A DNA stretch of 62,480 bases, the filler included, from Sphacelaria rigidula (taxonomy: Eukaryota), in assembly GCA_964200075.2 (NCBI GenBank). It is 8 parts of 8 records of this genome, joined end to end, with 100 filler letters (N's around TTAATTAATTAA, not from the genome) between each part and the next. Parts side by side here need not be neighbours in the genome. Positions count along the whole stretch, not along the records: positions 1 to 7,724 come from CAXNAA020013663.1; positions 7,825 to 15,547 come from CAXNAA020013664.1; 6 more parts are not named here. One strand, 5' to 3'. Within the stretch, counting starts at the first letter, position 1, and every line of letters starts with the position of its first letter. The notes beneath the pieces are model-generated. The model worked only from the letters and a program-made list of their open reading frames with translations, searched no databases and was not told the DNA's origin. Shown here piece by piece: positions 1-51,460 of the stretch. A program made the translations under genes and the position numbers.

Positions 1-131
1 CGAGTCGCATGAAGGGTGAGCTGCACCCTGCTAAGATTGTTCGGCCCGAAGCCTACTGATTATCTTGCATTCGGAGGGGTGGGGTGTACTCATAATCTTG
101 CATGACATCGTCATATGACCATTGGCTTCGC
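1..131 (-). mobile_element. Two fragments of LINE family B (ORF2-end piece 1-71; 3' tail 86-131), separated and flanked by G-rich tracts
   Basis: The reverse complement of 1-70 matches 6310-6378 and ~50780-50850. The reverse complement of 86-131 matches the family B tail (...CAATGGTCATATGACGATG...ATGAGTAC). Confidence 0.75.
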
Positions 132-1012
132 GGAGGGGCGGAGGGGAGGAGGCGGCAAGGGGTACAGCACCGATTTGTCATAGCCAACATAGCTATATCC
201 TCTTCAATTCCGCGGAGCTATCTTGCTGGTGACTGTTGGAGGGGGGGGGGGCGGGGAGCAGAGCGTGCGTAGTTTCTTTCGACTTCAACGATGAAAACAA
301 CATCTGAACATTGAAAGTTCTCCACCGGTACGGCGTGTTAGTGTTGCACGCGCGAGACGGTGGATGTTTGATGTGGACGCTCTGGTTCTCTGCATACTAG
401 CCTCGTACTCACCTACCTACCCCTCCTTGATCCTGTGAGTGAAAGGGAGGAAACCGTCTGAGTTTTTTTCAGACGATCTTTACACGCAATAAGTGACATA
501 GCCACAACGATTTGTTGGTGAAAAAAACATTCTGCGTCCGTCCCGTAAGTCTAGGTGGTAATGGGCTGCAGGTCTTTTCTCTCGAACGGGGGTGCCTACG
601 GTTGGTGGAGAGATCAAGTTATTTATGAGCGTCTTCATAAGGCACGATTTCGGGCAAGATTTTCCCCAATGTTGGCCACTGCAAATCCAATTTTAGCCAA
701 ATTCGACCGGTTTTGGCCATTTTCGTGCCGGGCGGAAGTGATAAGGCAAACCACGTGGTTCAGGACTAGACGTAGCTAGCCTCTGTACAAGAAGCAGGCT
801 AAAACTAACCAAGAGTTTTTGCCCTTTCCTCCCCTCCCCCCTTTTTTGTTATTTTTGCCGTTTTTCTCTGTCTTCTGGCCTTGGAGACGGGGCGAAGTAC
901 TGTTATTTTCGGGTCGAATGATTTTTTAACGGTCGGACCGTCCGGCCCCTTGCGTCAAGCACCAGTTGTCATGTTTATGTATAAGCAGAAGAATCAAATC
1001 GGGAACAATTAA

Positions 1013-1469
1013 AACAGTCGACCACCAAAATTGAGGGTGGAGCTTTTCATTGAGGATGATAATCTGGAGGATTAAAATCTTCGAATCCACACCAAAACTT
1101 CGAAACATGGCCCCATTCCTTCTCCTACAGGTAATATCTAATAAAAATAACAGGTAGCTATTAGTGACGACTTCTACACGCCCTAGAAACTTGGGTATCG
1201 GTAACCGAAATCTTGGGGTCCTAGGTGAAGAAATAATTTTGAGGAATGTATGTAATCCGATCGGATCGCCGAAATTCCCCAAAACTGTTTTTTCATCTAG
1301 AACCCCAACATTTCGGTAATCGAAATCATAATTTGTATAACGTGTAGTAGTTATCAATAGCTACCAGTAGGTGAAGGGATGGAACCATATATCGAGGATC
1401 TGATGTGGATACGAATATGTTAACCCTCCGGGTTCTCAGCTCCGTCCTCAATTTCGATGATCGGCTGTT
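1013..1469. mobile_element. Foldback (whole-length palindromic) MITE, copy 1
   Basis: Ends are AACAGTCGACCACCAAAATT...AATTTCGATGATCGGCTGTT, the centre is ATCCGATCGGAT near 1260, and TTAA flanks both sides. Homologous to 8036-8478. Confidence 0.85.
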
Positions 1470-2594
1470 TTAAGGGCCCGTACGAACAAAGCCGTCCAGG
1501 CTTATGGGGCAGAGAGGAAGTATATTGATATCACATATTATCATGACGTTGAAAGGCATTTGTCGCCATGCCTTCGCAGACCCGTGGATTTGCTACTTGA
1601 CATTATATTTTGTAAGGACTTGAGGTCTGACTAGGCTTGATCAGCAGGCGAGTTTGATGGTACGCTCTGTTGCTAGCGGCCCCACGTAGCTCATTTATTC
1701 TCACGAGAAGCATTCTGTCGGAAGCCACCCAACCCGGTAAGGCCAGTAAGATCGCATTGAACGAGCGTTACGGAATAAAAAGGACAGCGATCATTTGATC
1801 AGGAACGCATTTAGACTTCCTGCTGCGTGATTTAAAGAGCACTGAGAAACAGGTGGTAATCGGCTATCAGGAATAGCTCACAGAACACGCAGCAGATCAT
1901 ATCGTGCGGTCGCTACTCTGTGCATCGCTGAGCGTGTTTGTCTACGCGCTAGCTTACCCCTTCACAATATTGCGTTTGGAACAAATAATACCCGACCGGT
2001 GTCATAGCATGGTATTGCGAGACAACTGCTTACAATCGACGTTTTTAGTCGTTCATTTAAACATTTCCCGTGGCGATTCATTTGAACAAGCAAAATCCCT
2101 TGCCACACATTGGCATATATATCTTCGAAAGGACGAAGAATATTTGCAACTACATCGCGATCGCTGACGATTTACGCGTCGAAATGTACGTTCCATGTGT
2201 TACCCAAGAAAAAACGTCCTGCACCGCCCTTTAGATAATACACCTCGAGCACATCCTGGAGCCCTTGGTCGCAGCAGCAACATTATTCACATCTATGTTG
2301 TCCGACAACATCTTGTGAGGTCGCAGCTACTCCTCGAAAATGGGTAAGCGACAGAAATCGATTCCGATTCCCTGATATTTCTCACTGTGAGGAATCGACA
2401 AAACCCCTGTGCCTTTGTTGAGTATTTGCCGGATTGACAACTTCGACACACAAAAACGCGCCGTTCCTACGAGTTCGGGCTTGAACTCTTTTCCAGGGCT
2501 GAGTTGATTCAGCAGTCCGTCGCTCAGGTCAGAATCTTGTGGAGATGTCGAATAAATACGGATCTGAGAAAAAAAAAATGGAGAAGAAAGGGTC

Positions 2595-3321
2595 CAAGGG
2601 CAGGTCGAGTAGAGTATGTACTTTTGAGTACTCGAGTAAAATACCCGAGTATTTACTCTACTCAAATTTTAAGTAGGTCGAGTACTGCCTCAAATACTCT
2701 ACTCCAATTTTGAGTAGGTTGAGTACGGCCTCAATACCCTACTCAAAATTTGAGTGAATCGAGTACGACCTCCAATACTCTACTCAAATATTGAGCAAAC
2801 ACTCTTGGTAATACTTTAGTGTAGAGTATCACTTTGGTATGACTTCAATACTCTACTCAATTTTTAAGTAGGTCGAGTGCGGCCTCGAATACTCGACTCA
2901 AATTTGAGTAGATTGAGTACGACCTCCAATACTCTACTCAGAATTTGAGGAAGCACTCTCAGTACTACTTTAGTATAGAGTATACTTGGGTATGGCCTCA
3001 ATACTCTACTCAATTTTTAGGTAGGTTGAGTATGACCTTCAATACTCTAGTCAAAATTTGAGTAAATCGAGTACGACCTCCAATACTCTACTCAAATTTT
3101 GAGTAAGCACTCTCAGTAATACTTGAGTATAGAGTATCACTTGGGTATGACCTTGATACTCTACTCAATTTTTGAGTACGTCGAGTACGGTCTCAAATAC
3201 TCGACTCAATTATTGAGTAGATCGAGTACGGCCTCAAATACTCTACTCAAAATTTGCGTACTAAAAAAATGACTCTTCAAAACTACTGAGTATTGAGTAT
3301 ACTCTACTCCACCTGCCCTTG
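2595..3321. mobile_element. Non-autonomous hAT-like element filled with a tandem hairpin-repeat array
   Basis: TIR CAAGGGCAGGTCGAGTAGAGTAT / ATACTCTACTCCACCTGCCCTTG. The 8-bp flanks AAAGGGTC and GAAGGATC match 6/8, consistent with a decayed hAT-type TSD. Interior is ~40-bp units like AATACTCTACTCAAATTTTGAGTAGGTCGAGTACGGCCTC. Confidence 0.75.
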
Positions 3322-5088
3322 GAAGGATCTATATTTCATGAAAACTTTGATGTTTGTGAATGGATACGGAGGTCAATACGAAAGTATGAGATGCCACGAA
3401 CTAAACACTTTTGCGTGTAATTATTTATTGTTTTCGCAGTGTATTTCTTCAGCAGTCAACACACACAGGCACACAAGATGAAACGATACGCGGAGAAGTG
3501 ACCGAACGAATTCACATTCCCTCTTACAAAGAGACTCATGCATACAGATCTATACATAAATGCCTACGCACACCACGCTCGTTAACATTTCTTGTGTCAT
3601 CAAGGACACGTGTGCGGTCGCGCTTTGTCCGAAGAACGGCGCAGGATGCGTGACAGGGACGGGAAAAGAGTGCGGGGAACGGCGGGTGCCACGTGGCGTT
3701 GGCAGGTATCTTTAGTTGGGACACAAATGGCATACGGTAGATGGGCCGCCATGAAAGTATCCCAATATGAAGTTCTGGACTCACTGTATGCATAATACGT
3801 ATTTTGTGGGGGTACACCCCCATTTTGTAGGAATGGAGTTTACAGAAAAAAGTATGGGGGCAGCCAGTGTCTGAAAAAACACAAAATACTATGGTAACCA
3901 ATACGAAACGTGCTTCATAGGACACATCCAATACGTTTTGAAAGGTCTACCTGCTGTATACCGGTACGCTGCTGCCGGTTAGCCTGGTACTAGACACATG
4001 CGTGCCGATTGTCGACGGTATCCGTGTTCGTTTTCTGTTTTGTTTTGCACGAATAAGATGAAGGCGACTCCACAGCACACGCGTGGCGCTACAATGTAGA
4101 GTGAGTTTACGGTAGGGGTTCACGTTTTTGGTCCAAACGTTTTCTGAGGCTGCACACTACTGATAAGGCTCACATGTTTGTCATCGAAGTGCTCCTTAAG
4201 TAGTGCAGGGCCTCACGACAAAACCGAGCACCCCTAGAATAAAAGCACGCTTCAGCCAACGAATATTCATGTTTGAGGCTGGGTGCAGGCACACCGTGCC
4301 ACCGCTATGTAGAGGGGAGCTTCGCAAAGTCGTAAAACGACTCGTGGAGAGAACACGGTATCATATCCTCTTGTGTCCTGTGTGTCCGATCTGGGCGCTG
4401 TAGCCTAGGCCCGTCAACGCTACAACTCCTTTAATCAGCTCACACGGATGGGCGACAAAAGACGCTCGCCCTAAGCCGGGACCCAACACGAAAACAAACC
4501 GTACAAGCATAGCAATGAAACCGGACAACAAGCAGCGACAAGTTTGTTCGCACTACTTACTGTTCTGAAAAGACGTTTTACGCCCTGCTAAAAACTTACT
4601 CTTCTGACAGGGCGTTATAACCCCTACTAATGAACAGACTTTTTTACGAAATGCTCACAGGATATGATCCCCCCCCCCCCCGCCCCCCAAAACGCCAGGA
4701 AAAACAACCTTACTTGGGAAGAGCTAGGGAAACCCTGTCGGCTGTGATACATCTGAAGTACCGATCCTCGGCCGACGGATGGTCCGCATGGCGTGGGGCC
4801 CTACAGCGCGAATAATATACGAACAAGAAGCGTAGAGAGAGAGAGAGGTAGGGAAGGCATCGACCTGTAATCGGGGTATGGAACCGAAAAAGCAGGACAT
4901 GGTATAAGAATAGGGTAAACAAACGGCGTTGTTGATAATGGTATGGGCACAATGTTTCACGTGAATGTCTTGAGATCATTTGAAGCCTCTTTTACGATAG
5001 AGAAGCCCACTTGGTTCTAGTGTACCGACGACAAGGCTAAAAACTCACCAAATATTGTATGCTAGGGCCGTGCGAAGGACACACACGC

Positions 5089-5109
5089 ATATATATATAT
5101 ATATATATA
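5089..5109. repeat. (TA)n microsatellite
   Basis: Direct reading; a second (TA)n tract lies at ~5736-5759. Confidence 0.9.
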
Positions 5110-6199
5110 CCTGTACGGCTGTATGTCTCGTAACCACAGAACATTAGCGCCAGGTTGATTGGTGGTTCTCTGCGGTCCTTCCAGCCCGCCGCGTCGGCGC
5201 AAACCTTTTCCCGGAAGCACGAACAAAACCCACACCGTACTCATGAGAAGAGGAGACGAAACGGGCAGCCGGGGGGGCGAACGGAATAGCTCAATTTTGG
5301 AATATGACTATGGCCCTCACGTACGGCGTGTGACGTCTTGCGCATCCGGGTCTGACTCATACACTGCTACGTTGCGCCAAAGTAGCGCGTTTTACAATAT
5401 GTACGCATTTGCACCCACGACAATGTCGCGGTGCGTTGCGACGCTGGGGCCGTCGACTTACTGCCGTGGTTTGATGACACGAAAAAGTGGAACTTTCTCT
5501 GAATCAGGGAATAGTCACTCTCTCCGGTGATGGAGGTCAATGCTCAATGAACGTACATCCATATAATCGATTGATTGTCGCATTTTGACTGATGCCCCAA
5601 GATTCCATTCATGGTCATTATCCACATGACACAGTAGACGCATCCGACATGAAAATGAAATGGAAACGCACGCTGAAAACAAAAGAGGAGAGGGAGGGTA
5701 GAACAGACAGGGTAGACTAAGAAAAGAAAAAAGGAGTATATATATATATATATATATATCGCACTTTATTACTGATAATGGTGAAACCGCTTCCATATAG
5801 AGCCTAGCACACACACATTTCGAGATAGGTATCCGCGCCAGTTACTCTCGTCGGATAGGTTCGTTCTTGCCTACTGCCCACGGTAGATCGCTCTATTGTT
5901 TATGTGCGATCGTCGGCCAGACCTAGATCCTCGACATCCAAGTCAGACCTTCGAGTTGCCATTCTAAAGTCACATTGTTGACAGTATCTACTATCTTGTT
6001 CACTTTTTTTTCCCACATGCATTTCCCAAGGAGTATCTATATGTCAATCCATCAATGCAATATTGCTGAGATTAGTCGTCAAAAGTACCGTAAGATTGGC
6101 CTGCTGAAAGACGTTTATATCCTGATTCTCGCGGACATAACCCAATACCGCCTCATAACCTTGTGGCAGGAAACTGAATCGATTTACCCTCCCTCCCGT

Positions 6200-6520
6200 C
6201 CCCGGGTGAGACACCCATGAGGCTATGGGAAAACCTCATGGAAGCCGTGGCTGTCTCTGGAAGTGGTGATACCAGAAAATTAAGCAACTCATCAGAGGGT
6301 GTCATCCATATGCAAGATAACCGGTCGCTTCGGATTGAACAATCTTCGCAGGGTGCAGCCCACCCTTCATGCAACTCGCCAAACACACCACAGCGCTTTG
6401 CGCTTTGCGAGTGATTGCGAGCCTGGTCCGATAAGAACTCGGCGTGCTCCATCCCGGCTTTTTAGGGATGCGAGGTCAATGTTCATATGACGACGGCATG
6501 TGAGATCATGAGTACCCCCC
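6200..6520 (+). mobile_element. LINE family B, 5'-truncated 3' end ending in GAGTAC + oligo(C)
   Basis: The ORF ending ...EQSSQGAAHPSCNSPNTPQRFALCE* (stop 6414) is homologous to ...EQSQQGAVHSLCDSPNASRRFALGE* near 50810-50885. It is followed by the conserved tail. LINE identity is inferred from variable 5' truncation and the tail shared with RT-encoding family A. Confidence 0.7.
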
Positions 6521-6527
6521 AACCCCT

Positions 6528-6600
6528 CGTGCTCCGTCTCGAAAGGAATGCGTGGTCAACGGTCAAACGACTAAGGCAAACAATAAATAACCACGCGCCC
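6528..6600 (+). mobile_element. LINE family A, tail-only (~70 bp) copy between two C-tracts
   Basis: GTGCTCCGTCTCGAAAGGAATGCGTGGTCAACGGTCAAACGACTAAGGCAAACAATAAAT matches the 3' end of the RT-coding copy at 9232-9294. Confidence 0.8.
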
Positions 6601-6617
6601 CCGCCCCTCCCCCCCCC

Positions 6618-7724
6618 GACATCAGGTTTGATGTCCGCAGATGGTTTTGTGGGGATTTCAGGAACAGCAGAAGGATTGCAACAACAGATAAACAAGGCTC
6701 TAGAATACACTAGGAAATGGAGAGTGACAGCGAATGTCAAGAAATGCGCGATACTCGTCTGTCACGAAGATAAGAGGAATCCGGTAAAGTTTAAATGGGA
6801 GTGGGGAGAAGAGGAACTGCCGATCGCAGACTAGTACACATACCTTGGCGTAGAGATCTCAAAACGCTGTTCTTGGGATGCACGCATACACAAAGTAATA
6901 GAAAAGGGCAAGGCACAGATAGGCAGGATGGACGTGATCCTCAGAGACTCGCACCTAGACACTATGATTAAAAGATGTATCCTGATGAACGTGACTGTAC
7001 CAAAGCTGGAATATGCAGGAGAAGTATGGGAGGGGAACGTGAAGTTGGTGCAGAGGTTGGAAACAGTACAGATGGCAGCAGCTAAAAAGATACTTGAATG
7101 CTCGACAACGACGAGTAATACAGCACCGAGAGCAGAGTTGGGAATGTACTCACTAAAACCAAACAGAGACATGAGGGAGTTTAGATGGCAATATAGCGTA
7201 AACAACATGCAGAGAAAGAGACTGCCAGCTATAGTCGATAAGGCTGTATGGAAGAAAAGTACGAAAGGGCATGCTATAAGGTGGGATAGAGAAGTCGAGA
7301 AGATATGGAAGGAGATAGGCGGAAACCAAGACGAAATACTGTACATAGGTGAAGACGCGGGGTACAAGGCAAAAGTAAGAGAGATGATAGAAATAAGGGG
7401 GAAAGGAGCGCCCAGACGCAAGGTAGACGAGGAAGAACACCTGAAGATATACAGGGGGGAGTGGTTGAGAGAGGGGATAGGGATGGAAAGATATCTGAAT
7501 GGTCCCATGGACGTGGCAGACAAATTAAAACTGCGATCTCGGGTTGGGGACCTGGACCTGCCAGAAAGAAGGAAAAGATATACCAGTCGTCGAAAGGAGG
7601 AGGAAGTAGATGGACAGAACTGCCTCTGTGGCAAAGCGATAGGGAGCAGAAGTCATATAGTGGCAGAATGTGAACTATACGAGGAGGAACGGGACGTGCT
7701 AGAGGGGACATGCGGGACGTGAAC
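6618..7724 (+). mobile_element. LINE family A ORF2 remnant (RT C-terminal half, thumb, CCHC zinc knuckle); pseudogenised, cut by contig end
   Basis: GLMSADGFV (decayed FADD), LQQQINKALEYTRKWRVTANVKKC, YTYLGVEIS, VPKLEYAGEVW and CLCGKAIGSRSHIVAEC, all typical of non-LTR retrotransposon ORF2. In-frame stop at 6832-6834. Confidence 0.92.
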
Positions 7725-7824
7725 NNNNNNNNNNNNNNNNNNNNNNNNNNNNNNNNNNNNNNNNNNNNTTAATTAATTAANNNNNNNNNNNNNNNNNNNN
7801 NNNNNNNNNNNNNNNNNNNNNNNN
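7725..7824. other. Artificial contig spacer
   Basis: 44 N + TTAATTAATTAA (stops in all six frames) + 44 N. Confidence 0.98.
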
Positions 7825-7887
7825 AGTACTATTTTAGGCTTGAACCTTATCTCGGAGTTAAACCTCAATTCGCACAATTTGTTGTTC

Positions 7888-9294
7888 AATGCTGGGATAT
7901 GCAGGAGAAGTATGGGAGAGGAACGTGAAGTCGGTGAAGAAGTTGGAAACAGTACAGATAGCAGCAGCTAAGAAAATACTTGGATGCTCGAAGACGATGA
8001 GTAATACAGCATTGAGAGCACAGTTGGGAAAACATAACAGCCGATCATCGAAATCGAGGATGGAGCTTTTCATTGAGGATGAGATCCCGGAGAATTAAAT
8101 TTATCGTATCCACACCGAATCTTCGAAATATGTTTCCATTCCTCTACCTACTGGTAGCTATTGACAAGTGCTACACGCCCTACAAACTTGGACTTCGATA
8201 ACCTAAATGTTGGGTTTCTAGATGAAAAAACCATTTTGGGGAATGCAGATGATCCGATCGGATCGTCGAAATTCCCCAAATCTGGTTTTTCACCTAGGAC
8301 ACCAACATATCGGTTATCGAAATCCAAATTTGTAGGCCGTGTAGCACGTGTCAATAGCTACCACCAGGTGGTGAAATGGAAACATATTTCGGAAATTTGG
8401 TGTAGATACGAAAGTTGTGACCCTCCGGTTTCTCATCCTCAGTGAAAAGTCCAACCTCAAATTCGATGATCGGCTGCTATATTCACAGAGACATGAGAAA
8501 CTTGCGATGGCAATATAGCTTGAAGAGCATGCAGAGGAAGAGATTTGCTGTTGTAGTTAATAGGGCTGTATGGAAGATAATTACCAAAGAGCAGGCTGGA
8601 ATATGGTGGGATAGAGAAGACGAGAAAATATGGAAGGTGATAGGAGGAAACCAAGACAAAATACTGTCCATAGGTGAAGGTGCGGGGTACAAGACAAAAG
8701 TAAGAGACATGATAGAAATAAGGGGAATAGGAGCGCTCAGACGCAAAGTAGACGAGGAAGAACACCAAAAGATATACGGGGGGTTGAGAGAGGGGATCGG
8801 GAGGAAAATATATCTGCATGGCCTCATAGACGCGGCAAAATATTTGAAACTGCGATTTCGGGTGGGGGACCTGGACTTCCAGAAAGAAGATAGATATACC
8901 AGTAGTCGGGAGGAGGAGAGAGGAAACGCACCGAATTGCCCTTGTGACAAAGCAATAGAGAGCAGAAGTCATATAGTGGCAGAATGTGAACTATACAAGG
9001 AGGAGCGGGACGTGCTAGAGCGGGAAATGCGGGAATGTGAACGAAGGTGGCATGGAATCGTTTCATGCATTAGGCAGCAGCGAAAAACCGATGGCTATAC
9101 TAGGAAATAGATGGTGGCATCAGACGGCGAAACAGGACGAGGATACGATATGTGAAATGATTTGATGTAATGCATGAAAAAAGGTAATGGGCACCTTAAT
9201 GTGGGAGGTGCCTCTATTCGGAGCAGGAACGGTGCTCTGTCTCGAAAGGGAGGCGTGATCAATGGACACACGACTAAGACAAGCAACAACTAAG
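7888..9294 (+). mobile_element. LINE family A, 5'-truncated copy reaching the 3' terminus, interrupted by a MITE and followed by a long poly(C)
   Basis: LGYAGEVWERNVK...AAAKKILGCS and LKLRFRVGDLD...CPCDKAIESRSHIVAECELY are collinear with 7005-7724. Tail at 9232-9294, C-tract at 9295-9332. Confidence 0.92.
8036..8478. mobile_element. Foldback MITE, copy 2, nested in a LINE
   Basis: AACAGCCGATCATCGAAAT...ATTCGATGATCGGCTGCT with centre GATCCGATCGGATC. The near-identical ORFs 8161-8445(+) and 8148-8354(-) reflect the palindrome. LINE sequence resumes on both sides. Confidence 0.9.
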
Positions 9295-9332
9295 CCCCCC
9301 CCCCCCCCCCCCCCCCCCCCCCTTTCCCCTCC

Positions 9333-9404
9333 GCGAGCCTGGTCCGGCGAAAATCCGGCGTGCTCCGTCCCGGCTTTGTAGGGATGCGAGGTCAATGGTC
9401 TCAT
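9333..9404 (+). mobile_element. LINE family B tail fragment directly after the poly(C) of a family A copy
   Basis: GCGAGCCTGGTCCGGCGAAAATCCGGCGTGCTCCGTCCCGGCTTTGTAGGGATGCGAGGTCAATGGTCTCA matches 6417-6485. Confidence 0.8.
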
Positions 9405-10753
9405 GTGGAAGTATAAGCAACTACCGCAAGCAGTAGTGCCGTATACACCGAACGCAAACTAGCCACACCCTTGTGGGGTGTAGACAGGCGGTCCTGTTTC
9501 CGACTTGCTAACCCAAACTGTTGTTTCACTCTCTCAATACAATAGCCCAGCTGTCAAAGTGGGAGCAGCCCTAAAGCCAGCAAACAAGTAACAATGGTGA
9601 ATGAGGGTGATAGTACAGCACAGCTAAGACTCACGTCAATAAGGCTGTGGACTCGCGACACTGAAGACAGGAGATCGGTGGGTAGCTGATGAGTAAAGCT
9701 CTTCTTTATATCTAATTAGACCTGAAGACTGTAGTCGAGGTTTTCGAGTGAAGACAGGTGGGACAGCTGCCCATATGTCCGTCTGCCCCGCTTACAATCT
9801 CGCCATAAAACAAAATCACCGTGACGCGCCGTACCTTTAGGTAATCAAGGCTGTAGTAGCAGCAGGTACACGCGGCTAATCGGGTACAATCCATCTACCT
9901 TCAACCCGCTGCGTCAACAATACAAGGATCGAATCCTGTCTCATACAAACACACATTCGACTAGAATCTTTCCATACCCGCTGGTCTTTTCTGGAGACCC
10001 ATCTGCGGATCCCAAAGAACGCATATATTTCTGGCACGCAGTCATTTCCCATCACACACGTGACAAAACAAATAATCAGCCATCATGATGCGCGCTGGGT
10101 GATGCGCGCTGGGAGCGACGCGCTCGTGCTCACGCTTACGACGACACATAGGTAATCAAGCTACGGAGACCACTACAGTGGTTCCCACCGCGCTTGGGTA
10201 AGGTGAAGAAACGCAAGCAGTCGAATTATCAAAAATAACCAATGTACTCTTGACCATGGCAGGTACCGCGCAAAAACAACTGCGAGAAACAATGCTGCTC
10301 AGGCGGGAATTTAGGTTCGGCGTGCGTACTGCTGTAATGAGCGGAGATTGTAAATGTGCCGCCAATGACGTGAGCCAGTGAGCCCATACCCAAATAAACA
10401 ACAGTATGATCTCGGGATATTGTATGTCAACAGTGACTCAACCGAAACATGAATTGATACAAGAGCTGAGGCTTCGAGATGAACCTCAAGACTAAAGTCC
10501 ATCCGGGTGTGCTTGCACCACTTGAAGATGCGTGTCCACAACGTTAGCGTAGCGATATCGCTCACAGCGTGACTTCGGAGGTGGCTATGCGCTAGTCCTG
10601 TGCGTGATGCCATTTGAGTAAAGTAAAACGGCGTGCCTCCCACGCAGTTCGATTCGATGCTCTTGCAGGTTAGAGTCAGAATCTTCAGCTATTCTTGATT
10701 AAACAGGAAGCGCGGAGTTGATGTCGGAAGGCATGAGTCTCTACACGCTGTAT

Positions 10754-15547: not shown

Positions 15548-15647
15548 NNNNNNNNNNNNNNNNNNNNNNNNNNNNNNNNNNNNNNNNNNNNTTAATTAAT
15601 TAANNNNNNNNNNNNNNNNNNNNNNNNNNNNNNNNNNNNNNNNNNNN
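15548..15647. other. Artificial contig spacer
   Basis: 44 N + TTAATTAATTAA + 44 N. Confidence 0.98.
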
Positions 15648-22967: not shown

Positions 22968-23049
22968 GAAGGGGCGGGAGGGGGAGAGGGGGGGGGGGGG
23001 GGGGGGGGCACCCACAGCGCCAGGCGCCGAGGGGGGGGGGGGGGGGGGG

Positions 23050-23088
<39 letters not shown>
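22968..23088. repeat. Poly(G) / G-rich tract array
   Basis: Several G runs, the longest ~37 nt. Confidence 0.9.
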
Positions 23089-23092
<4 letters not shown>

Positions 23093-23308: not shown

Positions 23309-23370
23309 GGGGGGGGGCGTACTCATTTGTTGCTTGCCTTAGTCGTTTGACCATTGACCCCGCATCCCTT
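23309..23370 (-). mobile_element. LINE family A 3' tail with oligo(C), cut by contig end
   Basis: Reverse complement reads AAGGGATGCGGGGTCAATGGTCAAACGACTAAGGCAAGCAACAAATGAGTACGCCCCCCCCC. Confidence 0.85.
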
Positions 23371-23470
23371 NNNNNNNNNNNNNNNNNNNNNNNNNNNNNN
23401 NNNNNNNNNNNNNNTTAATTAATTAANNNNNNNNNNNNNNNNNNNNNNNNNNNNNNNNNNNNNNNNNNNN
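23371..23470. other. Artificial contig spacer
   Basis: 44 N + TTAATTAATTAA + 44 N. Confidence 0.98.
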
Positions 23471-23920
23471 TACTCATTTGTTGCTTGCCTTAGTCGTTTG
23501 ACCATTGACCACGCATCCCTTTCGAGACGGAGCACGGGGGGGGGCGGACTCATTTGTTGGTTGCGTTGGTCATTTGAACGTTGACCACGCATCCCTTTCG
23601 AGAAAAAGCATTTTCTTACTCCTGAGAGAGACACCTCCAACATTTGGGCGCCCATTACGTTTCTTCCATACATTACACCAAAATCCTTCACATATCCTAT
23701 ACCCTTCCTGACTCGCCGTCTATTGTCAGCATCTATCTCATAGTGTAGCGATCGCTTTATCGCCATTGCCTAATGCACCAAACGATTTCATGCCACCTTT
23801 GTCTACTTCCCATATTTTCCCCCTCTAACTCGTCCCGTTCCTCATTGCATAGTTCACATCCTACAATCATATGAGTTCTACTTTATTGCGTTGCCACAGC
23901 GGTAAGTCTGTGCATCTACG
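23471..23920 (-). mobile_element. Two stacked LINE family A 3' ends (truncated copy ~23546-23920, oligo(C), then a tail-only copy 23471-23535)
   Basis: Reverse complement is collinear with 8925-9294. G-run at ~23536-23544 lies between the two tails, and G-rich 23922-23933 lies at the 5' junction. Confidence 0.85.
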
Positions 23921-25416
23921 TGGGGAGGAGGGGATAGGCACGCGATGTGTCGGTGAGTAGTGTCGGTGAGTAGTTTGTCAATCACGTGCCCAAATGTCAC
24001 GTCCCAACTCGAAAATTGAGTCGCCCATGACGGAATTTCTGTTTTGACTGAAATCTTCGAGCGGAGGATTCGCCAATATCGCCACGCGCAGATCAATTTG
24101 ATACAGTTGGGGCCCGAAATTTTGACACGCGACAAGTAAGGTATTCGCCGGACGCATAGCGAACAGTCCTGTTTGCCGACACGAGGATGCGGGACGCGAT
24201 AGCTCCGAGAATACCTTACTTTCGCGTGCGAGGTTGCATGTTACCGCGGGGCAGCCCCGGGGCACATCTTGAGCTGCAAAGGTTCGTCTCGCAGTGTTTT
24301 CATCTCGCGGTACCGGTCACCATCGAGGCTCCTCTGCCGTGCGCATGTTATCGTGGTTGTGCGTGCGTAAAAACAACGAGAATGTTCTCGATTGGATCGG
24401 TAAATAGCAGCCACTCGACTAAGCACACAGAAAAAATGCACATACTGCGGCATATCGACATGGGGGAGCACATCGGCCAAGAACAAAGCTGGGAAGCTAA
24501 GGATATATATTTCAGCAGGAAACCGTGCCTTACTTGTTCTTGGCACACTTGCAAAAACCAAATTCGTATTCTCCCGTGTATCGCCGCGTTTCTATTTCAT
24601 CACGTTTTGGTGTGGTGTTGTGTGTGCCTTGTTTGCTATGTGAAGGGCAAGCAGATCCTGATACAGCAGTACACGGGAAGGACCGGTACACCCGCTGCGA
24701 TTTCATTCAGTATTGCACGCAACGGAGTCATAGCACAGGGGTGTGATGTGTGCGTTGAAAATACCAAGTATCGCCGACATGCTATTATTCAGTATTGAAC
24801 ATATCGGAGCTATCCTACAGGCGTGTCCATAAAAATATAAATAGACGGAACCAAATGATTCACTTCAACTCTGCACAGCAGTCGAAGCCATCGTACAAGT
24901 CTGAGCCATCGCACATGTCGGAGATATCACAGAGGGGCGCGATAAAAGGCACGTTAGGGATTAATTTTCAAAAAACGATCGCGCACTGCGCACTGACTCG
25001 CTGTTTTACGGGTATCAGTGCGCCTGGATCGGACGATTACGTCAATACCTTCATTTACATCGACCGAGTTACGAACATCCGGCACATGGCTCTCTCGGCC
25101 AGCCCAGCCAGCAGTCTCGAGTTGTACGGAGCCCGTCGTTCTCAATTTGCCATATAGCCCTTGGATTGTACGTACAGGGACTCGACAGAGACGTGTGCGC
25201 GTATTCTTAAGATGAATCGTCCCGATAAATCCCCCAAACAAAGTTCGTTCGGACACACAATGACTCAAGTACAACACATCGAAAATGGGCCGGAGGGCGG
25301 GGTGGGTTATTCCGCAAGGAAGCAGAACATAACATTCACATGAAGGACGCGAGACGAAGAACAAGTTGGCTGGTGCAGTAGGGACAGTAGCGTGGATTTT
25401 GGAATACAGACATGGA

Positions 25417-25490
25417 GCTCTCGTAGCTCAGTTGGTTAGAGCGGTTGCTTAGTAAGCAGCAGGTCCATGGTTCAACTCCGTGCGGGAGCT
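25417..25490 (+). tRNA. tRNA-Thr-AGT: tRNA-Thr (anticodon AGT)
   Basis: Full cloverleaf: acceptor GCTCTCG/CGGGAGC; D-arm GCTC-AGTTGGTTA-GAGC; anticodon arm GTTGC-TTAGTAA-GCAGC; T-arm CATGG-TTCAACT-CCGTG. Followed by T-runs (Pol III terminator). Confidence 0.9.
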
Positions 25491-25509
25491 TTTCCTTTTC
25501 GATGCCGCC

Positions 25510-31193: not shown

Positions 31194-31293
31194 NNNNNNN
31201 NNNNNNNNNNNNNNNNNNNNNNNNNNNNNNNNNNNNNTTAATTAATTAANNNNNNNNNNNNNNNNNNNNNNNNNNNNNNNNNNNNNNNNNNNN
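31194..31293. other. Artificial contig spacer
   Basis: 44 N + TTAATTAATTAA + 44 N. Confidence 0.98.
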
Positions 31294-32231: not shown

Positions 32232-35200
32232 CTACTCGCTGTCCCCAGTGTTCATCAAGGCGCGACGGTGCCTGTTGAACAGCGTGAATGGGGGCGGCTT
32301 AGTAAGGATATCAGCGTGTTGCCACTCCATATCCACATGAACAATTCTTACTGCTCCCGTCCTAACCGAGTCCCTAATAAAATGCCACCTCACGTCGATG
32401 TGCTTACTTCGACCTGAGCTAAGAGGGTTGTCGGCTAGAGCCTTAGCCCCCTCATTGTCTTCAAAGAGAACAATATCGTACTCGACTTGTCGTCCCAACA
32501 CGACATTCGGTCGTAGGAAAGATAGTACCGACCTGACAAACATGCATTCTTTCGCCCCTTCCGCCATAGCTACGTACTCGGCCTCGGTGGTTCACAGGGT
32601 AACGCAGTGTTGTGTTCGGCTAGTACTTGATACTGCTATTCCCCCGAACATGACCGCTACACCGGTGACTGACCGCCGGTCTGTATCTTTCTTGGCGTAA
32701 TCAGCGTCACAATAAACTGTGAGCCTACTCTCCCCTGACCTAAACGTCAGACCGTACTTTCTGATCGTGTTGAGGTACGCCAGAACTTTCAACACCCCTC
32801 GCCAGTGTTTTTCACATGAGTCATGTGATTGTCGGGCCAAGTCTCGGGCTGCATTTGCTATGTCAGGCCTGGTTACCCCAGCTAACCACATCAAACCTCC
32901 CACGGCACTCCGGTATGGCCTATCTAAAACCTTGTCACCTTGCTTCACTTGTCCCAAATCTACAGACACTGATGCGGAATTATCAGAAAATTCCGTAACC
33001 TCGAAATGCTTCAGTATGGTGTCGACAAAGGTCGTCTGATTCACGTACATGGTACATCTTTTCCAATTCCTTTCTATGGCACCCCCCATATACCATTGGA
33101 CTTCACCCAAGTTGCTCGTCGGGAATCCGTTGCTGAGGATATTACATACCCTGTCCACTCTTTTCGTTTCTCCCCTAATGAGAATGTCGTCCACATGCAC
33201 AACAAGTATGACACACACTTCCCCCCTTTCCTCCAGTCTGTACACACACGGGTCAGCCTTACTTTGCGACATTTTTACATCCTCCATCAGGTTTTTGTTC
33301 AGGAGGAGGGACCATTGCCTTCCTGCTTGTTTCACGCCGTATATAGATTTTTCTAGCCTTACCGTGCTACCTGTCAGGGGGTCACACCCTTCTGGGAGCT
33401 TCATGATCACGTTCGTGTACATTTTGGCTCGTACAAAAGCCTGGGTAACATCGAAGTGATATAGTGGCTATCCTCTTTGTACTGCCACGTCCATGACCAA
33501 TTTTATTGATGTCATGGCCGGGGTGGCTGCGAACGTCTCAAAATAATCCACCGCGAATCTCTAACCAAACCCACGCGCCACTAATCTAGCTTTCGCTTTA
33601 GTTACAGTACCATTAGCGTCGATTTTCCAGAACACCCATTTGGCTGTGATTATGTTTACTCCTTTTGGAATTCCTCTTTTTAAGAATGTACCGGCGGTTT
33701 CATGCCCGTTCAGTTCTGCACGCATGGCACTCAACCATATTGCCTTGTATTCCGACTTTTCTCTGTCTTCTACTGATACAGGGGGAGTTTCTACATCTCT
33801 CACGTGCAGACTGATGAGGGAACGCAAACCAAAACTGGGCTCCTCCTCCGTCCCGTTTTCGGCTGAGAAACGAAAATACTCCTGCTTCTTCGATCAGCAT
33901 GGCCGCACTGCCTCCCACCTCTGGTCCGGCTGCTGCAGTGATCAGCTCCGTCATCCCGCACTTATCCTCTGCCATTCCACACAGCACAGTCTCCGCTTGA
34001 GCCTTCGCCTGGACCCTTGCCATCGCGCGGGAGGAAATTTCGTTTCTTTCCCACGCCATCATTCTCCTCAGTTCGTCCTCTGCCGCCGATGCTAGCTCGT
34101 TTTGGTCGGCTGCCGCTCTCGTCGCACTGCGCGTGCGACCTCCCATTTGTGGAGCCAGAGACAACTCATCGTCGAGTGCAAGACGGCGTAACTCCGTCCT
34201 TGGGATTTCGGGAGCTCCACCCCCACCCCGTTGTTGCGCTCGGGGGTGTCTACGGTTGTCGACGTTGTTGCTATCGACGTTGGCAGCGGCGATGTGGCTG
34301 TCGGCGGCGGTGTGGCTGTCGGCGTCGGCGGCGGTGATGTAGCTGCCGGTGGCGATGTGGCTGTCGGCGGTGATCCTCCGTCATCAACGAGATGTCGGAC
34401 AGGGTTGCGTAAAATCCTGCGCCCCCCCTCCGCTTCTGCAAGGAAACGGCGGGGTCATCTCACCCCCCCCCCGCCAATAGCGGGGGTCTGTTATGCCGCT
34501 TCTGCGTCCAGCTCTGGGTTGGGGAGCAAGAACGACACGTGCCGTGAACCGCGGGGTGAAGCACGCGCCTCTGGAGTTTGCCGTGCCGCGGACTCGCTGC
34601 CGGCCGTCCGGCCCTCAATCTTGTCACCCCTCGCTCCGTCGGGCGTCAGGATTGCTTGCTGTGGGGCAGGGCGAGAAGTATGGGGGACATACGCCCATGT
34701 TACGTGCCTGGTCGTGAAAGTTTGTCCTGTTTCCGCCATCACTCTCATAGCATCGCGCGGGTATCCTGGGGCTGGGCTAAGGTACCAGCACCTCTGAGCG
34801 TTTCTTTGTAACTTGTCTGTTCTCTGAACTCTACAAAATCCTGGCTTTAGAAAAGGGAAAAGGTTGTTTTCCGGTGGAACTCGGTGCCATATTTCGTGTG
34901 GCGTCTTGTTTCCCGGGTTAGCCGAGGTCGCAGTACAGTTCAAAGCATGGCATGCTCAGTTAGCCTGTTCCGCCCACAGATTCTTGCTCGTTGGGATGTT
35001 CTGGTTCGGGTACATCTCCGATGCCTGAATTTTGGCTGCAAGGCCGGCCGACTCTATGATGCCAATTGCACGCTCCGCTACGCCGTTGAACTGTGGGGAG
35101 TCAGCAATTGTTTTCTCTTGTTTCACTTTCTCTCCATCACATAGCTCCTCGAACGCCCCCTCCGAAAATTCACCTCCACCATCACTGCGGGCCTTCTGGA

Positions 35201-37605
35201 TTTTTCGCGCGTGAATTTCTGCGATGTATTTTCTAAAGTACGTTACGGACTCGTCCTTGGTGCGCAGAAAAAACAATCTAGTGTGCCGCGAGCAATGATC
35301 GCGTACTATCATCATGTACGACCTTCCTCCCCGAGATCTTACTGGGTTTGGGCCTGTGAGATCAACAAACACTCTGGAAGCTGGCTCAACTGCTCGTGTA
35401 TGGGTCGATCTTGGGATGAACTGCCGAAATCCTTTCCCTTCCGAGCATCCGCGGCACGGTCTCAACTCGCCGCGTAGCTCCACTCCGAGCTGCTTTGCAG
35501 TTCGCCGGAGCAGGTCCTCGTGAACATGCGCATGTTTGCAATGAAAATCATTTATGTCTTCAACTTGGGAGTTGGGAAGTTTCCCCGGGGCAATCACAGC
35601 GCAGACTGACGCATGCTTGTCATGACCATTCGGAAAGATGCGGTGGGCGTACATTAATAGTTGTATGTGTTGACCGGGGATCTTCAGGGTATTACCTGAC
35701 TAGACCCAATGTAGGTGTGACCCGCGTTGGACATCCTGGTCAGTGACAACAGATGGTGACGGACACAAGGTACGTGGTCTACATTTTTCAAATGCAAGAC
35801 TATATCGCGTCCGTCAGATCGTAAAGATAGAGCCAAGTTTCCTCTTCCTACGATCGGGTAGGCACCGCCGCCCGCGCACCGTAGTACCCTTCCACTGCAT
35901 TTTCTATAGTCCGTCATCATACCTGAATACGGAGAAAACTGCGAAATGACTCCCGCATCAAGTACCCGCGCTTCGCCCCCATCTGACTGTTCTACATCCC
36001 CCTTCCCAGTCGCACACGCATACTCGCCTGTGTTGACCTCGTCCACCGTCATGTCGAGGCTAGTGAACGCTTCTGCATCAGCATCCGAACAGACGGAGTC
36101 GGCGTCCACCACGTCTTCCGCCACGCCCATCACAATCGCCGCGTCCTCCACAGTCGCTGCGTCCTCCACAGTGCTCTAACAGTCAATCGAACTATGCCCT
36201 CTCTTCCCGCACCTAACACAACGCCTGTCTAGACAGTCTCTAGCCCGATGTGTGGTCATCTTCTGACAAACGTGGCACCTCCACGGAGTCGCAGCCCCCG
36301 ACTGGCTCGTTGACGATGAAGCCGGCGACTGGTTGTTTTTCCCCTGCCCCCCGTCACCTGCGCGGCCTGGGTTCTGGGTCTTCCTCGGTATACCTTTCCG
36401 GTGTGAACCGTTAGGTTTGCCGAGATGGCCCTTGACAGCAAGGGCCTTGTCGCCCAGGAGCCTTCTTCCTCTCGGCCAGTTCCTGCTTGTAAAGTGCCGA
36501 TTCGAAACGTTTTCGAACCGACGTCACTACGATTGTCCTCGTGAGTGGACCTTCGCGCTCCTCCAACGCCTGTTTTTGATAGTTATACTCGCAAGGAAGC
36601 GCATCTACAAATTTGAGGAGGCTTTGCGCCTCCGTCAGGATGATTTTGGTGTCGTATGATTGTAACTCTCTCGCCACCTCTTTCATCACGATACGTTTTT
36701 GAACAGGATCATCGCGAACTCCAATCTTCACGTGATCATACTTTTCTAGAAGAGCTAATCTAGCTCCGTTGGTCTTTGAGCTTGCGACGGTTTAAGAGGG
36801 CGCTGACTGATCAGTAGTCTTGTTAGTTGTCTCGTCAACCGTCACAGGCTGTAGAGGTCATTTACCTCACGCCACACGGCTGCTGGAGACGGAATTTGGA
36901 ACAAAACATCCCTGTCCCGTTTATGTTCGAGACTTGCCGCCAGCATTCGCCTCGCTCTCACGTTTGCAGCTACAGTGCCCTTTCCGTGCCTCCCTCCAAG
37001 ATAACTTAAGGATAACGCCTTGTTTCCCACCTCCACATCGTATGTCCTATCCTCTGACACAGTAAACACCCAATCAACTGCTTCGCTCCTAGCAAATATG
37101 ATAAGTTCGTGACTGAAGTGTTGAACTCTGAACCCTTTACAGAGAACTTAGGTACCGTTGCCTTGAAAACCGGGACCCTAGAAATATTTCGGACACTTTG
37201 TCGGTCGTGACCGAACATTGCGACGGACTCACTTGCGGGGTCTGCACCCCTTACTCCGTCGCTCACTGTCCTGTGGTCGCTCCCGCTCGGAGCTCAACGC
37301 TCGCCCTCTCGGCTACCTTGTCGCCCGTGAGGTGTGCTGTGGCTGGCTGAGTTGTCAGTCTGGTGTTGTTGTGTTGCTTGATCTTCGCTGTCGACGACGC
37401 CACTCCACCTCGCGCCTCCGGATTCACGACCTTCGATGCCATCTACCCTACCCTGTACTACAGTCTGTGTAGATTGTACATATTTTACCATCTCTGTCAG
37501 TGTGCTGAACTGACCACTGAAGAGACTCATCATACTTTCAAGCTGACTCGTCAGCGCGTCTAATCTTCCTTCTGAAGACGGAGCGTTACCATCGTTCCTC
37601 GCCAT
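32232..37605 (-). pseudogene. Copia gag-pol polyprotein with multiple stops and frameshifts
   Basis: Gag start MARNDG (37605); twin knuckles CHVCQKMTTHRARDC and CVRCGKRGHSSIDC; protease VLDAG; integrase HCKHAH..CRGC, VFVDLTGP, RSDGGGEF, NGVAERA; RT KARLVARGF, YGVKQAGRQW, VHVDDI; RNase H YCDADYA, EAEYVA, RSKHIDVRWHF, QHADILTK. Confidence 0.96.
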
Positions 37606-39016: not shown

Positions 39017-39116
39017 NNNNNNNNNNNNNNNNNNNNNNNNNNNNNNNNNNNNNNNNNNNNTTAATTAATTAANNNNNNNNNNNNNNNNNNNNNNNNNNNN
39101 NNNNNNNNNNNNNNNN
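39017..39116. other. Artificial contig spacer
   Basis: 44 N + TTAATTAATTAA + 44 N. Confidence 0.98.
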
Positions 39117-45736: not shown

Positions 45737-46673
45737 CTGAAGAGCAAGTGTATGACCGATAAACAGCGGCTTTCGTGTTGGAGTCGTTCAAAGCTCAAAG
45801 GGGAGTCAAAATCGCCATTTGTTTTCACAAAGTCGAACAAAAGGCGTTTTCATCACTGCCGGTTGTGAACAAAGAAAACACACGACGTGTTGTTTATGGA
45901 AATATCCATTCTATCGTTCCACCCGACTAAACACATCTCTGAATCCCTGCGAGCTCGTTCCACGGAATAACAACGACTATCACTTGGACAAAACGATTGA
46001 GGATACGGGCGCGGCGGGGACGATGCTGAATTCCCCCCTTCCCTCCACCTCTATCGTTGAACGAGTCATTGTTTTGTTGTCCCCGAAGAAATGGAACGCT
46101 ATGGTGATGGCTGTGTCATGAAACAAATGAAAACCTGTTCCGATGCCGCAAAATACCACCTTCGGGCGCAAGACGATCAAAAGGACCAAAGCTCGAAAAT
46201 GGTGTCAATGCCAAACTCAGACGATAGCGTCGATGAAACATTTGCGAGAAATAGTCAAGTCCAAAAGAAACCCAGCAAATTATCATGGGGGCGGTACGTT
46301 TTGCAGGGTATTCGGGCAAGATGATATGTTCTCTCTATGTCCTACAGGATGAACCAGACCGATTGACTCCCCACACAGGATTATTACAGTCTCCATCAGC
46401 ACGAACATCCGTGGACAGGATTTACGACCGATAAAACACGCGGTTGAGCGGGCATGCGATTGACCCGTGGGTGGCGATGCGGTGACGACCATTGGCTCAA
46501 GACGTCACAGATAAGAAAATCCGCACAATCATTCGCTGAGACCACTACTATACGAGCAATAAAGTGCCTACCGAGAGCTCGGACCTTTTGGAATACCGGT
46601 ACGGTTGAAGATTATTTCCACACTGGTGATAGATTGTATGGACAACAAGGACCATATGGCGCAGTAGGAGAGC

Positions 46674-46800
46674 GGGGATGTACTGATTGTATTGCTTGCC
46701 GTGATCTTAACACCATTGGCCTCGCATCCCTACACAGCCGAGACGAAGCACGCCGGGTTTTCACCGGATCATGCGCAGTAGGTGGGGGGGGGGGGGGGGG
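46674..46800 (-). mobile_element. LINE tail, variant subfamily (B-like start, A-like end), with poly(C) at the 5' junction
   Basis: Reverse complement: C17...TCCGGTGAAAACCCGGCGTGCTTCGTCTCGGCTGTGTAGGGATGCGAGGCCAATGGT...GGCAAGCAATACAATCAGTACATCCCC. Confidence 0.75.
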
Positions 46801-46838: not shown

Positions 46839-46938
46839 NNNNNNNNNNNNNNNNNNNNNNNNNNNNNNNNNNNNNNNNNNNNTTAATTAATTAANNNNNN
46901 NNNNNNNNNNNNNNNNNNNNNNNNNNNNNNNNNNNNNN
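46839..46938. other. Artificial contig spacer
   Basis: 44 N + TTAATTAATTAA + 44 N. Confidence 0.98.
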
Positions 46939-49825: not shown

Positions 49826-50681
49826 CTATCGAGAATGAATTGCGGGGAAATTTTCGTGACGAGATATTGCGGCACGGAAATGAAATATCCGGGCATATAC
49901 TTGGCGGCTAGCAAAATTGAACAGGATACACACTGGAGGACAAAAAACAAGAAAAATGGGACGCGACGCACCTACAGTGAGGAAAGACGGAAGGATACGA
50001 AGAACAGAAAACCGTGGGAAGTGATATCTTTCTGAGGTGTGAGTGCAGCATCTCATACATAGAATAGCACAAATCATCACAGTTTTCCACACGCTGGCCG
50101 ATGACAATAAATGGTCAAGATGTGCAACAGACAAAATATGTACTGGGTAAAGTACAGCCCTACTGCAACTACTGTCGACATATACGACCAATAGATGCAA
50201 TAGACAAATATGTACTGTGTCAAGTATAGGCATATTGCAACTTTTGTCGATACTTTACACAGTACATTTCTTTAATCTATAGCACCTTTTGACCATATAT
50301 CGTCCAGGGTGTACAGTCTTCGTCTTCGGACTATAAGTCATGACGGGGAGAGCCAAGACTCAAACTGACCACCAAACACTCGAGACCACACACGGCACCA
50401 AAGGCATGCATTTTCCCCAGGTTCATACTTTCAAGGACCGGATGATGCAACCGCAAGGAAATCCAGACAGTGCTGACAAAAGGCTTGGTATAAGGGTGAC
50501 TGGCTTAAAGTTCGACACATGAATTTCTGTGTTCAACATGAACTCTATAAATATTTTTTGACAATTGTTACTGGTGAGCTGGGAGTACGCTCAGGATTCT
50601 CGATAATTTTCGATGCATGGGCGACCGCCGACAACATTATGTAATTCGGGCATACAGGTCAATCCCCCCTCGCCCCTTCCC

Positions 50682-50993
50682 TGTATATGGTTAGACATCC
50701 CATCGGGCAGTGTAACCCGTGGCTCTCTGGAAGTGGCAAATACTAGAAAATCAAGCAAGTTATTAGAGGCTGTCATGCATACGCAAGATACTTCGTACGC
50801 TTCGAGCTGAACAATCTCAGCAGGGTGCAGTTCACTCCTTATGTGACTCGCCGAACGCATCACGGCGCTTCGCGCTTGGTGAATGACTGAGAGCATGGTC
50901 CGGCGAAAACCCGGCTCGCTCCGTCTAGGTTGTGCAGGGATGCGAGGTCAAATGGTCTCACGACGGCATGGAGTACCATGTGTACACCCCCCC
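50682..50993 (+). mobile_element. LINE family B 3' end in a CAND1 intron, with C-rich tracts on both sides
   Basis: Collinear with ~6250-6520. Preceded by CCCCCCTCGCCCCTTCCC and followed by CCCCCCCTCCCTTC. Confidence 0.8.
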
Positions 50994-51107
50994 TCCCTTC
51001 GTCCTGAAGCGCTGCAAATTATCGGCTACTTGTGTAGGATGCGTGTAATGCTTATGGCAGGTGCGACTTTTTCATGTACTGCAGCGGGTGTACTACACCA
51101 TTAACCA

Positions 51108-51460
51108 GTCGCTCCGGTGGCTCAGTTCATAACCTCGATGCCTTCTGACGGTTGGGTCGTGGGTTCGAATTTCGGTGCAGTCACACGATCAGGGATTTTT
51201 CTCACACAATGCCCAACAGTGGAGAGCGGCTATGTCGTGGGTAGACAAAATTCGACTTCACGGTCGAGGAGGGGAAGGGACTACCAAACCCCTCTCGCGA
51301 TAAAAAATACGGAAAGCACCGCATACGAAAGGTGGAGAATTACAACAAATAAAAAAGAAAAATCTCCCGTGTTAGCCCTCCTGTGTGACCCCCGCTGGTG
51401 CGCCCACATACCCCGAGTGGTGTAGACCGACGTCCAGAATAGACGGGATGACAACACACA
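51108..51460 (+). mobile_element. Full-length tRNA-derived SINE (~350 bp)
   Basis: A box GGTGGCTCAGTT and B box GGTTCGAAT. Body shared with the 17460 and 53139 copies; CA-repeat tail. Confidence 0.85.

Follow-up and report, generated by a model that had tools for sequence, protein, structure and literature searches.

What kind of retrotransposon ends not in poly(A) but in runs of C, and how do its copies come to lie head to tail in one orientation, each beginning where the C run of another ends? The question is raised by a 62,480-nt stretch of DNA from Sphacelaria rigidula (GCA_964200075.2; hereafter the window), in which an earlier note had described two families, A and B, of long interspersed nuclear elements (LINEs) that end in, and appear to target, oligo(C) tracts. 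The window consists of eight pieces of 7721-7724 nt each, joined by 100-nt spacers of the form N44-TTAATTAATTAA-N44 (positions 7725-7824, 15548-15647, 23371-23470, 31194-31293, 39017-39116, 46839-46938 and 54660-54759). Pieces that adjoin here do not do so in the genome, and all LINE chains and structures described here are confined to single pieces. Public runs matched by piece 7 also contain piece 1 (0-1 mismatches); hence, the pieces derive from one organism. Our reading, to which we assign a probability of about 0.65, is that decayed copies of two elements have piled up here, a brown-alga LINE of the RTE-X type (family A) and its short non-autonomous partner (family B), by the mechanism proposed below.

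The two families were defined by self-BLAST and tblastn. Family A copies in the window correspond in tblastn to the last 450 residues (911-1360) of P0004, a protein of 1360 aa, which according to tblastn and Pfam unites an APE-type endonuclease (Exo_endo_phos, residues 170-392, E 3.4e-12), a reverse transcriptase (RVT_1, residues 740-989, E 9.8e-31) and a CCHC motif on one chain, and whose best solved structural relatives are L1 ORF2p and R2. The window's own LINE fragments gave a sub-threshold RVT_1 match in Pfam and nothing further. The copies start at different points (P0004 residues ~911, ~1034, ~1251 and 1342) and have the 3' module in common. With its endonuclease N-terminal to the reverse transcriptase, its 5' truncation and its shared 3' end, family A is an APE-type non-LTR (long terminal repeat) retrotransposon, that is, a LINE. 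Its intact relatives encode a single protein of 1333-1412 aa, and in two of them, L002 (open reading frame (ORF) 754-4992, 1412 aa) and L081 (ORF 1146-5147, 1333 aa), no further plus-strand ORF of at least 80 aa was found, the upstream region included. In these two the architecture is a single endonuclease-reverse transcriptase ORF without an ORF1 and with a very short 3' untranslated region: the ORF ends in AAC AAA TGA, followed by GTACG and then directly by the C run, which places the stop codon 5 nt ahead of it. Among named proteins, those of Ectocarpus come closest (65% and 48% identity).

Family B is about 310 nt long, with near full-length copies at 6205-6515 (B1, 311 nt) and 50683-50986 (B2); B1 is 76% identical to 50711-51005 in self-BLAST. 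It gave no coding match, and its final 60-80 nt are common to family A, B and A tails being 79-82% identical across ~57-125 nt and detected by a single profile. Family B codes for no protein and has its 3' end in common with family A, and is thus a non-autonomous LINE partner. Its head gave no Rfam match at E <=1 and no tRNA in ARAGORN within 6100-6700, and family B does not show the tRNA-, 5S- or 7SL-derived head with a polymerase III promoter that characterizes canonical short interspersed nuclear elements (SINEs). A candidate similarity of its 5' end to the LINE 5' region amounted to ~12 common nt, GGTGAGAYACCC, with no 5' match in BLAST, and is not claimed.

The shared 3' end has features of a functional unit in its own right. 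An nhmmer search with a tail profile recovered ten A/B 3' modules in the window, the remaining profile matches having E >0.3. In family A the ORF extends through this module to just short of the tail, and therefore the last 66 nt of the element are coding sequence and conserved 3' module at once. Two hairpins are predicted in the module, and in 4 of the 12 predicted pairs changes on both sides preserve the pairing. The motif TGCGWGGYCAATGG is retained in relatives at 36-40% protein identity (L004, L006 and L083), whose tails are A/T-rich repeats without C runs, and a separate group (L016, L030 and L055) carries the tail (CA)n; hence the RNA handle is conserved while the tail behind it varies, C runs being the form found in one lineage. 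A1 (6529-6595) and A5 (23471-23535, minus strand) are two mini-copies that consist of the bare module and begin at the identical base, GTGCTCC. The same start, with another tail in front of it, recurs at other loci among contigs of four public runs (three studies), which were aligned over 5900-7724 at 80% likeness; loose ends and joints of these contigs are cited here from among those listed, with 5136 loose ends and 804 joints lying outside the list. A closing stem, GUGCUC/GAGUAC, appeared in single-sequence folds, was missing from the consensus fold and was set aside; its covariation is uninformative, since both arms are nearly invariant. An exact-pattern scan for extra copies returned just the known contig from genome contigs and none from viral contigs, and BLAST of the metagenome-assembled genome (MAG) containing L081 matched that contig alone. 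As a separate observation, this MAG is labelled 'uncultured bacterium', so the intact brown-alga LINE L081 is algal DNA binned as bacterial.

That intact 3' ends are followed by a C run and not by poly(A) was confirmed by counting runs of at least 4 C that start within 3 nt of the module end. Nine of the ten modules in the window could be scored, the module at 23471-23535 on the minus strand being cut by a piece boundary and left out, and eight of the nine carry the run, at the places the earlier note had named: on the plus strand at 6516, 6596-6617, 9295-9322 (C28) and 50987, and on the minus strand at 23309-23317, 23536-23544, 46674-46677 and 73-84. The ninth, B3, had not been counted as intact in that note. 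Four independent ends from metagenome and MAG contigs read TGAGTACG followed by C8, C10, C13 and C10, which brings the tally to 12 of 13 testable ends, against a background of 1.27% of the 123,312 12-nt windows of the same stretch (binomial P = 1.6e-20, computed for 11 of 12 ends). Loose ends from other loci agree with this: their consensus is CATGATCATGAGTACA+C14, i.e. GAGTACA+C14, in run X5 (41 contigs), and GCAACAAATGAGTAC+C14, also given as AAATGAGTAC+C14, in run X6 (13 contigs). Tail length ranges from 4 to 28 nt.

The 5' junctions are just as uniform. In all 11 that can be determined, C makes up at least 10 of the 20 nt upstream (background 2.5%), and in 8 of them at least 12 (background 0.67%, P 6.6e-16), which bears out the earlier statement that C-rich tracts precede most truncation points; the exception once seen at 7888 falls away, since the piece begins at 7825 and protein homology extends back to 7862, so that the 5' end there is not determinable and the site was left out of the count. 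Six of the 11 junctions lie directly behind the tail of another copy. The other five belong to solitary copies, in which the C tract lies 0-11 nt from the element.

All four same-orientation chains named in the earlier note are present. The one at 6200-7724 (plus strand) opens with a C-rich tract, CCCTCCCTCCCGTCCCCG (6187-6204), which adjoins single-copy DNA upstream and stands just before B1 (6205-6515). B1 ends in ...ATCATGAGTAC (tail nhmmer E 9.5e-20), and its tail CCCCCAACCCCTC (6516-6528) is at the same time the 5' junction of A1, a mini-copy comprising the LINE A 3' module only (6529-6595; P0004 residues 1342-1360 in tblastn). The tail of A1, CGCCCCCGCCCCTCCCCCCCCC (6596-6617), in turn forms the 5' junction of A-RT1 (6618-7724), a 5'-truncated LINE A from the end of the reverse transcriptase through the CCHC motif (P0004 911-1270, 70% identity, weak RVT_1), with an in-frame TAG at 6832-6834 and its 3' side cut by the piece end. 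In the chain at 9232-9404 the LINE A 3' part A2 (7862-9294, plus strand; P0004 ~1034-1359, interrupted by a foldback element at 8036-8476) is followed by a tail of C28 and then TTTCCCCTCC (9295-9332), which is the 5' junction of B3, a 5'-truncated B (9333-9437, plus strand; nhmmer E 2.2e-15, alignment end 9435). At 1-131, on the minus strand, a C-rich tract (132-152) precedes B5 (85-131), a 47-nt 5'-truncated B that ends in GAGTACA (nhmmer E 2.1e-9); its C tract CCCCACCCCTCC (73-84) separates it from B6 (1-72), a 5'-truncated B that lies directly behind this tract and runs off the start of the window (1-70 against 6378-6310, 86% in self-BLAST). The fourth chain, at 23471-23920 on the minus strand, pairs A3 (23536-23920), an old 5'-truncated LINE A preceded by a C-rich tract (23921-23940) and ending in a C9 tail (23536-23544), with the young mini-copy A5, which sits directly behind that tail and has its last base cut by the piece end. 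Across the adjoining spacer, hence in a different piece, A4 (23309-23370, minus strand) comprises a LINE A 3' module cut by the piece end (23318-23370) and a C9 tail (23309-23317).

Stacking of this kind is not peculiar to the window. In 22 contigs of run X6 the A module is preceded by ...CCAGTACCCCCC, and joints listed from other loci include a B tail leading through CCCCACCCCC... into B and an A tail leading through ...CCCCC into A. These contigs also bear on the suspicion that stacks and C runs are artefacts of homopolymer assembly collapse, of local tandem duplication or of unequal crossing-over, a suspicion prompted by the artificial joining of eight pieces and the proneness of homopolymers to sequencing error. 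Against it, no chain crosses a piece boundary, the segment 5900-6268 is matched with 0 and 1 mismatch by contigs of two runs that belong to separate studies, and tails ending in a C run, as well as stacked joints, recur across the four runs and among unrelated metagenome contigs; moreover, stacked partners differ in family and truncation point, as duplication would not make them. We consider an artefactual origin highly improbable.

A more serious competitor grants the elements their C tail without any choice of target: the reverse transcriptase would add or slip on G at both the start and the finish of the cDNA, and stacks would form by template jumping within one event. End-to-end template jumping and non-templated addition are established for the reverse transcriptase of the R2 LINE, and several observations in the window suit this account. 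The C-rich tracts at solitary 5' junctions differ from one another in sequence and length, the tails vary in length as given above, and the two flanks of B2 (50663-51006, plus strand; C-rich at 50663-50682 and 50987-51006) are indistinguishable from non-cognate C-rich pairs. The C-rich tracts also lie outside the repeated unit: in run X1 the summed contig depth, a quantity distinct from copy number, is ~60 at 5900-6143 and rises only from 6205, where it is 1.9 million; 75,363 contig pieces were aligned in this run, and summed depths of 0.4-4.9 million occur from that point on.

Two loci speak against this account. Relative to the young consensus, A5 diverges at 1 of 65 positions and A3 at 9 of 63 (A1 at 8 of 66); A5 is far younger than the copy whose tail carries it, and therefore was inserted later on an existing tail and not in one joint event. 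The second is B4 (46659-46800, minus strand), which in element orientation reads C17 (46784-46800), a single A, CCTACTGCGC (46773-46782), a 5'-truncated B (46678-46772), the tail CCCCGCTCT (46669-46677) and CCTACTGCGC again (46659-46668). The two CCTACTGCGC copies match exactly and form a 10-bp target duplication, which opens with CC, 1 nt past the C17 run; the longest common substring of the flanks is 10 nt, and a value of at least 10 has P = 0.0028 in 20,000 control pairs. Since the 9-nt tail sits between the element and the duplication, it is part of the inserted DNA, and the 5' junction meets the other copy of the duplication without any added C, the C17 run being flanking DNA and not part of the insert. 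Together, the A3/A5 pair and B4 weigh against non-templated addition and template jumping as the whole story, which we regard as unlikely, although this account may apply at solitary copies.

Returning to the reading in which the elements choose C tracts, 11 of 11 C-rich junctions, six of them on older tails, suggest repeat-targeting by the copies in this stretch, as does the C-rich tract that separates B1 from single-copy DNA, and we regard C-tract targeting by these elements as likely. The mechanism we propose has four steps. The element protein would bind the 3' module of its own RNA, and its endonuclease would nick the G-run strand at or beside a C tract; the C tail of the RNA could then pair with the exposed G-rich primer, whereupon reverse transcription would begin; and early stops in copying would yield 5'-truncated copies, with the bare 66-nt module as a frequent form. 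Each insertion would add a new C tract, whereby old tails would become targets, and same-orientation head-to-tail stacks would follow from the use of old tails in this way.

Several points tell against this reading or narrow it. The 3' end of B3 has a degenerate terminus without a C run, the sole exception among the 3' ends, and in one joint, common to the four runs, an A tail passes into A sequence via CACTATACGGGG, again without a C run. The C17 run beside B4 lies outside the minimal duplication, which narrows the case for priming on a long G run there. A target duplication is seen in one of the two copies with both flanks visible: the flank similarity score of B2, 23, falls inside the range of non-cognate C-rich pairs (14-24), and a duplication was not counted there. 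Among the joints listed, none skips B1, A1 or the A copy as an empty site would, and for this reason a C tract older than the insertion is something we infer at the solitary copies. The earlier proposal of insertion into poly(C) thus stands as regards the oligo(C) tail and the landing at C tracts, including older tails (A5 on A3, B4 beside C17); at solitary junctions the C-rich DNA may have pre-existed or may have been added during integration. The background C frequencies were computed on the same stretch, which is itself rich in A and B elements, and the C tail may originate by transcription, slippage or addition. Finally, the RTE-X label for family A is a provisional one, taken over from the annotation of Ectocarpus relatives in PMC12477816.

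Do the elements make the G/C runs of the genome, as the earlier note had suggested they may? In the window this idea fared poorly. Of the 26 C/G runs of at least 8 nt, 4 follow a recognizable A/B module and one more borders the B4 duplication. Clusters without an A/B tail in front were observed at 22988-23089 (minus-strand sense; C37-T-C21, then C21), 59833-60018 (C8-A-C15, C22) and 62426-62461 (C16, C8). It may therefore be that the C runs came first, by an element-independent process such as replication slippage, and that the LINE adapted its tail to them and adds few. The 22 of 26 runs without a recognizable A/B 3' module in front include the longest ones (C37, C21 and C21 at 22988-23089, and C22 at 59997), and among runs of at least 15 nt the window has 9 of C/G against 1 of A/T, both of which favor the runs' priority; on the other side, other tailed families, or modules decayed past detection, could precede the same runs. 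We see the chances of this order of events as evenly balanced. It concerns the origin of the runs only and is compatible with C-tract targeting, and it is equally possible that G/C runs supply the targets as that the reverse holds. A bolder form of our reading would make the RTE-X lineage an obligate C/G-homopolymer-directed LINE, whose own reverse transcriptase makes the C tail and whose tail is the preferred next landing site, so that it creates its own targets and has laid arrays and G/C tracts, possibly forming G-quadruplexes or i-motifs, across brown-alga genomes, with the 66-nt module as the minimal mobile unit. We offer this form tentatively, and think it rather less probable than its negation.

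The proposed mechanism has recognizable relatives. In L1 the poly(A) tail pairs with the T-rich nick site TTTT/AA, copies are 5'-truncated and non-autonomous partners are mobilized. Families A and B resemble it in 5' truncation, in the mobilization of a partner and, as proposed, in a homopolymer tail that pairs with the primer strand where it is nicked. They differ from it in tail base (C against A) and, for family A, in having one ORF instead of two; furthermore, A/B RNA would be recognized via a specific 3' module common to the partner and not by its tail alone. Waldo, Mino, Kibi and Koshi are LINEs of microsatellites, while Zepp of Chlorella and Zorro3 of Candida insert into A tracts and their own tails. 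As in A and B, the tail of these repeat-specific or tail-nesting LINEs equals the target repeat, the repeat is found on both sides of the copy, and nests are head-to-tail in one orientation; they belong to other clades (R1, Tx1 and L1-like) and use other repeats, and we know of no example among them directed to a C/G homopolymer.

Closer still is the signature that RTE-clade LINEs and their SINEs leave on insertion, as described by Nishiyama and Ohshima in 2018 (PMC6007223). There, as in A and B, the target duplication is preceded by a homopolymer stretch, and its first base is the repeated base of the tail, as in B4, in which the duplication begins with CC 1 nt after C17. The two cases differ in that the RTE-clade stretch is of T, ~10 nt upstream, with tails such as (GGTTTT)n and (CAA)n, whereas in A and B both stretch and tail are C. 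The tail has been proposed to guide cleavage or to prime via base pairing (PMC6007223), a model that our proposal for A and B would mirror.

Closest of all are elements of Ectocarpus. According to PMC12477816, RTE-X LINEs and the non-autonomous RTEX-N1 are the most abundant elements there, and the supplement describes RTEX-1a as 'single EN-RT ORF; (C)n 3'' with 'C-rich' in its column for target site duplications (TSDs), RTEX-2 as having '(C)n termini/TSD', and RTEX-N1 as an element that 'can be present in tandem' with '60 bp 3' end 83% RTEX-1/RTEX-2'. The observation in the earlier note agrees with these entries on every point. As far as they go, RTEX-1, -2, -N1 and -N2 are like A and B in their single EN-RT ORF, (C)n 3' end and C-rich TSD, as well as in their short partner with ~60 bp of shared 3' end, tandem copies and very high copy number; the (C)n terminus and C-rich flanks of the Ectocarpus type were found at 12 of 13 3' ends and 11 of 11 5' junctions of A and B. 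The differences are the host, a brown alga other than Ectocarpus, and the length of the partner, ~310 nt for family B against 607 nt for RTEX-N1 and 188 nt for RTEX-N2 in that source. The best blastp matches reported in it for the Ectocarpus (C)n families are RTEX-4_NV and RTEX-1_BF, and its authors could not assign the head of RTEX-N1. The matched Ectocarpus proteins (65% and 48% identity) may belong to these RTEX families. Since the Ectocarpus library already records (C)n RTE-X LINEs, A and B are members from another host and not a new clade, and the remark of the earlier note that it knew of no described poly(C)-specific clade gives way to the entries of that supplement. The accessible entries are one-line notes, in which we found no mechanism, no stacking on older tails and no account of an ORF running through the module. 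A literature search for other C-tailed LINEs found none, a weak negative, as 'poly(C)' is not searchable as written, and the Phaeoexplorer preprint yielded no LINE text. The C-tail trait is already on record, and the gain is in this respect incremental.

If pairing of tail and target holds true, it would explain the tandem copies recorded in Ectocarpus, account for some of the long G/C runs that brown-alga genomes contain and extend to C the RTE-clade signature of a homopolymer upstream of the duplication. A non-poly(A) homopolymer tail is uncommon among LINEs. Because a C tail cannot arise by normal mRNA polyadenylation, A and B offer a natural test of how LINE tails are made and used. For annotators, stacked tail-to-head fragments are to be expected, with bare 66-nt modules in at least two places here, and homopolymer-rich junctions break short-read assemblies.

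The window contains several other features. The foldback element within A2 (8036-8476) is a palindrome of ~440 nt resembling a miniature inverted-repeat transposable element (MITE), with a related copy at 1013-1469 that matches in both orientations at 72-74% identity. The interior of a Copia-type LTR retrotransposon lies at 32592-36523 on the minus strand, in which Pfam recognizes RVT_2, integrase core and Pol beta-barrel domains. Exons of CAND1/TIP120 occupy 51340-54585 on the minus strand. One of them shows 90% identity with a Logan protein, 82% with Ascophyllum and 76-78% with Ectocarpus, in line with a brown-alga host other than Ectocarpus; B2 (50683-50986) lies ~350 nt from the nearest matched exon. 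Gaps of N10 at 29801 and 59909, two in all, resemble ordinary scaffold gaps. A tandem array at 2654-3303 is built of units of ~150 nt that are 82-92% alike, and a tRNA-Thr (AGT) gene at 25416-25491 is the sole tRNA found in the window.

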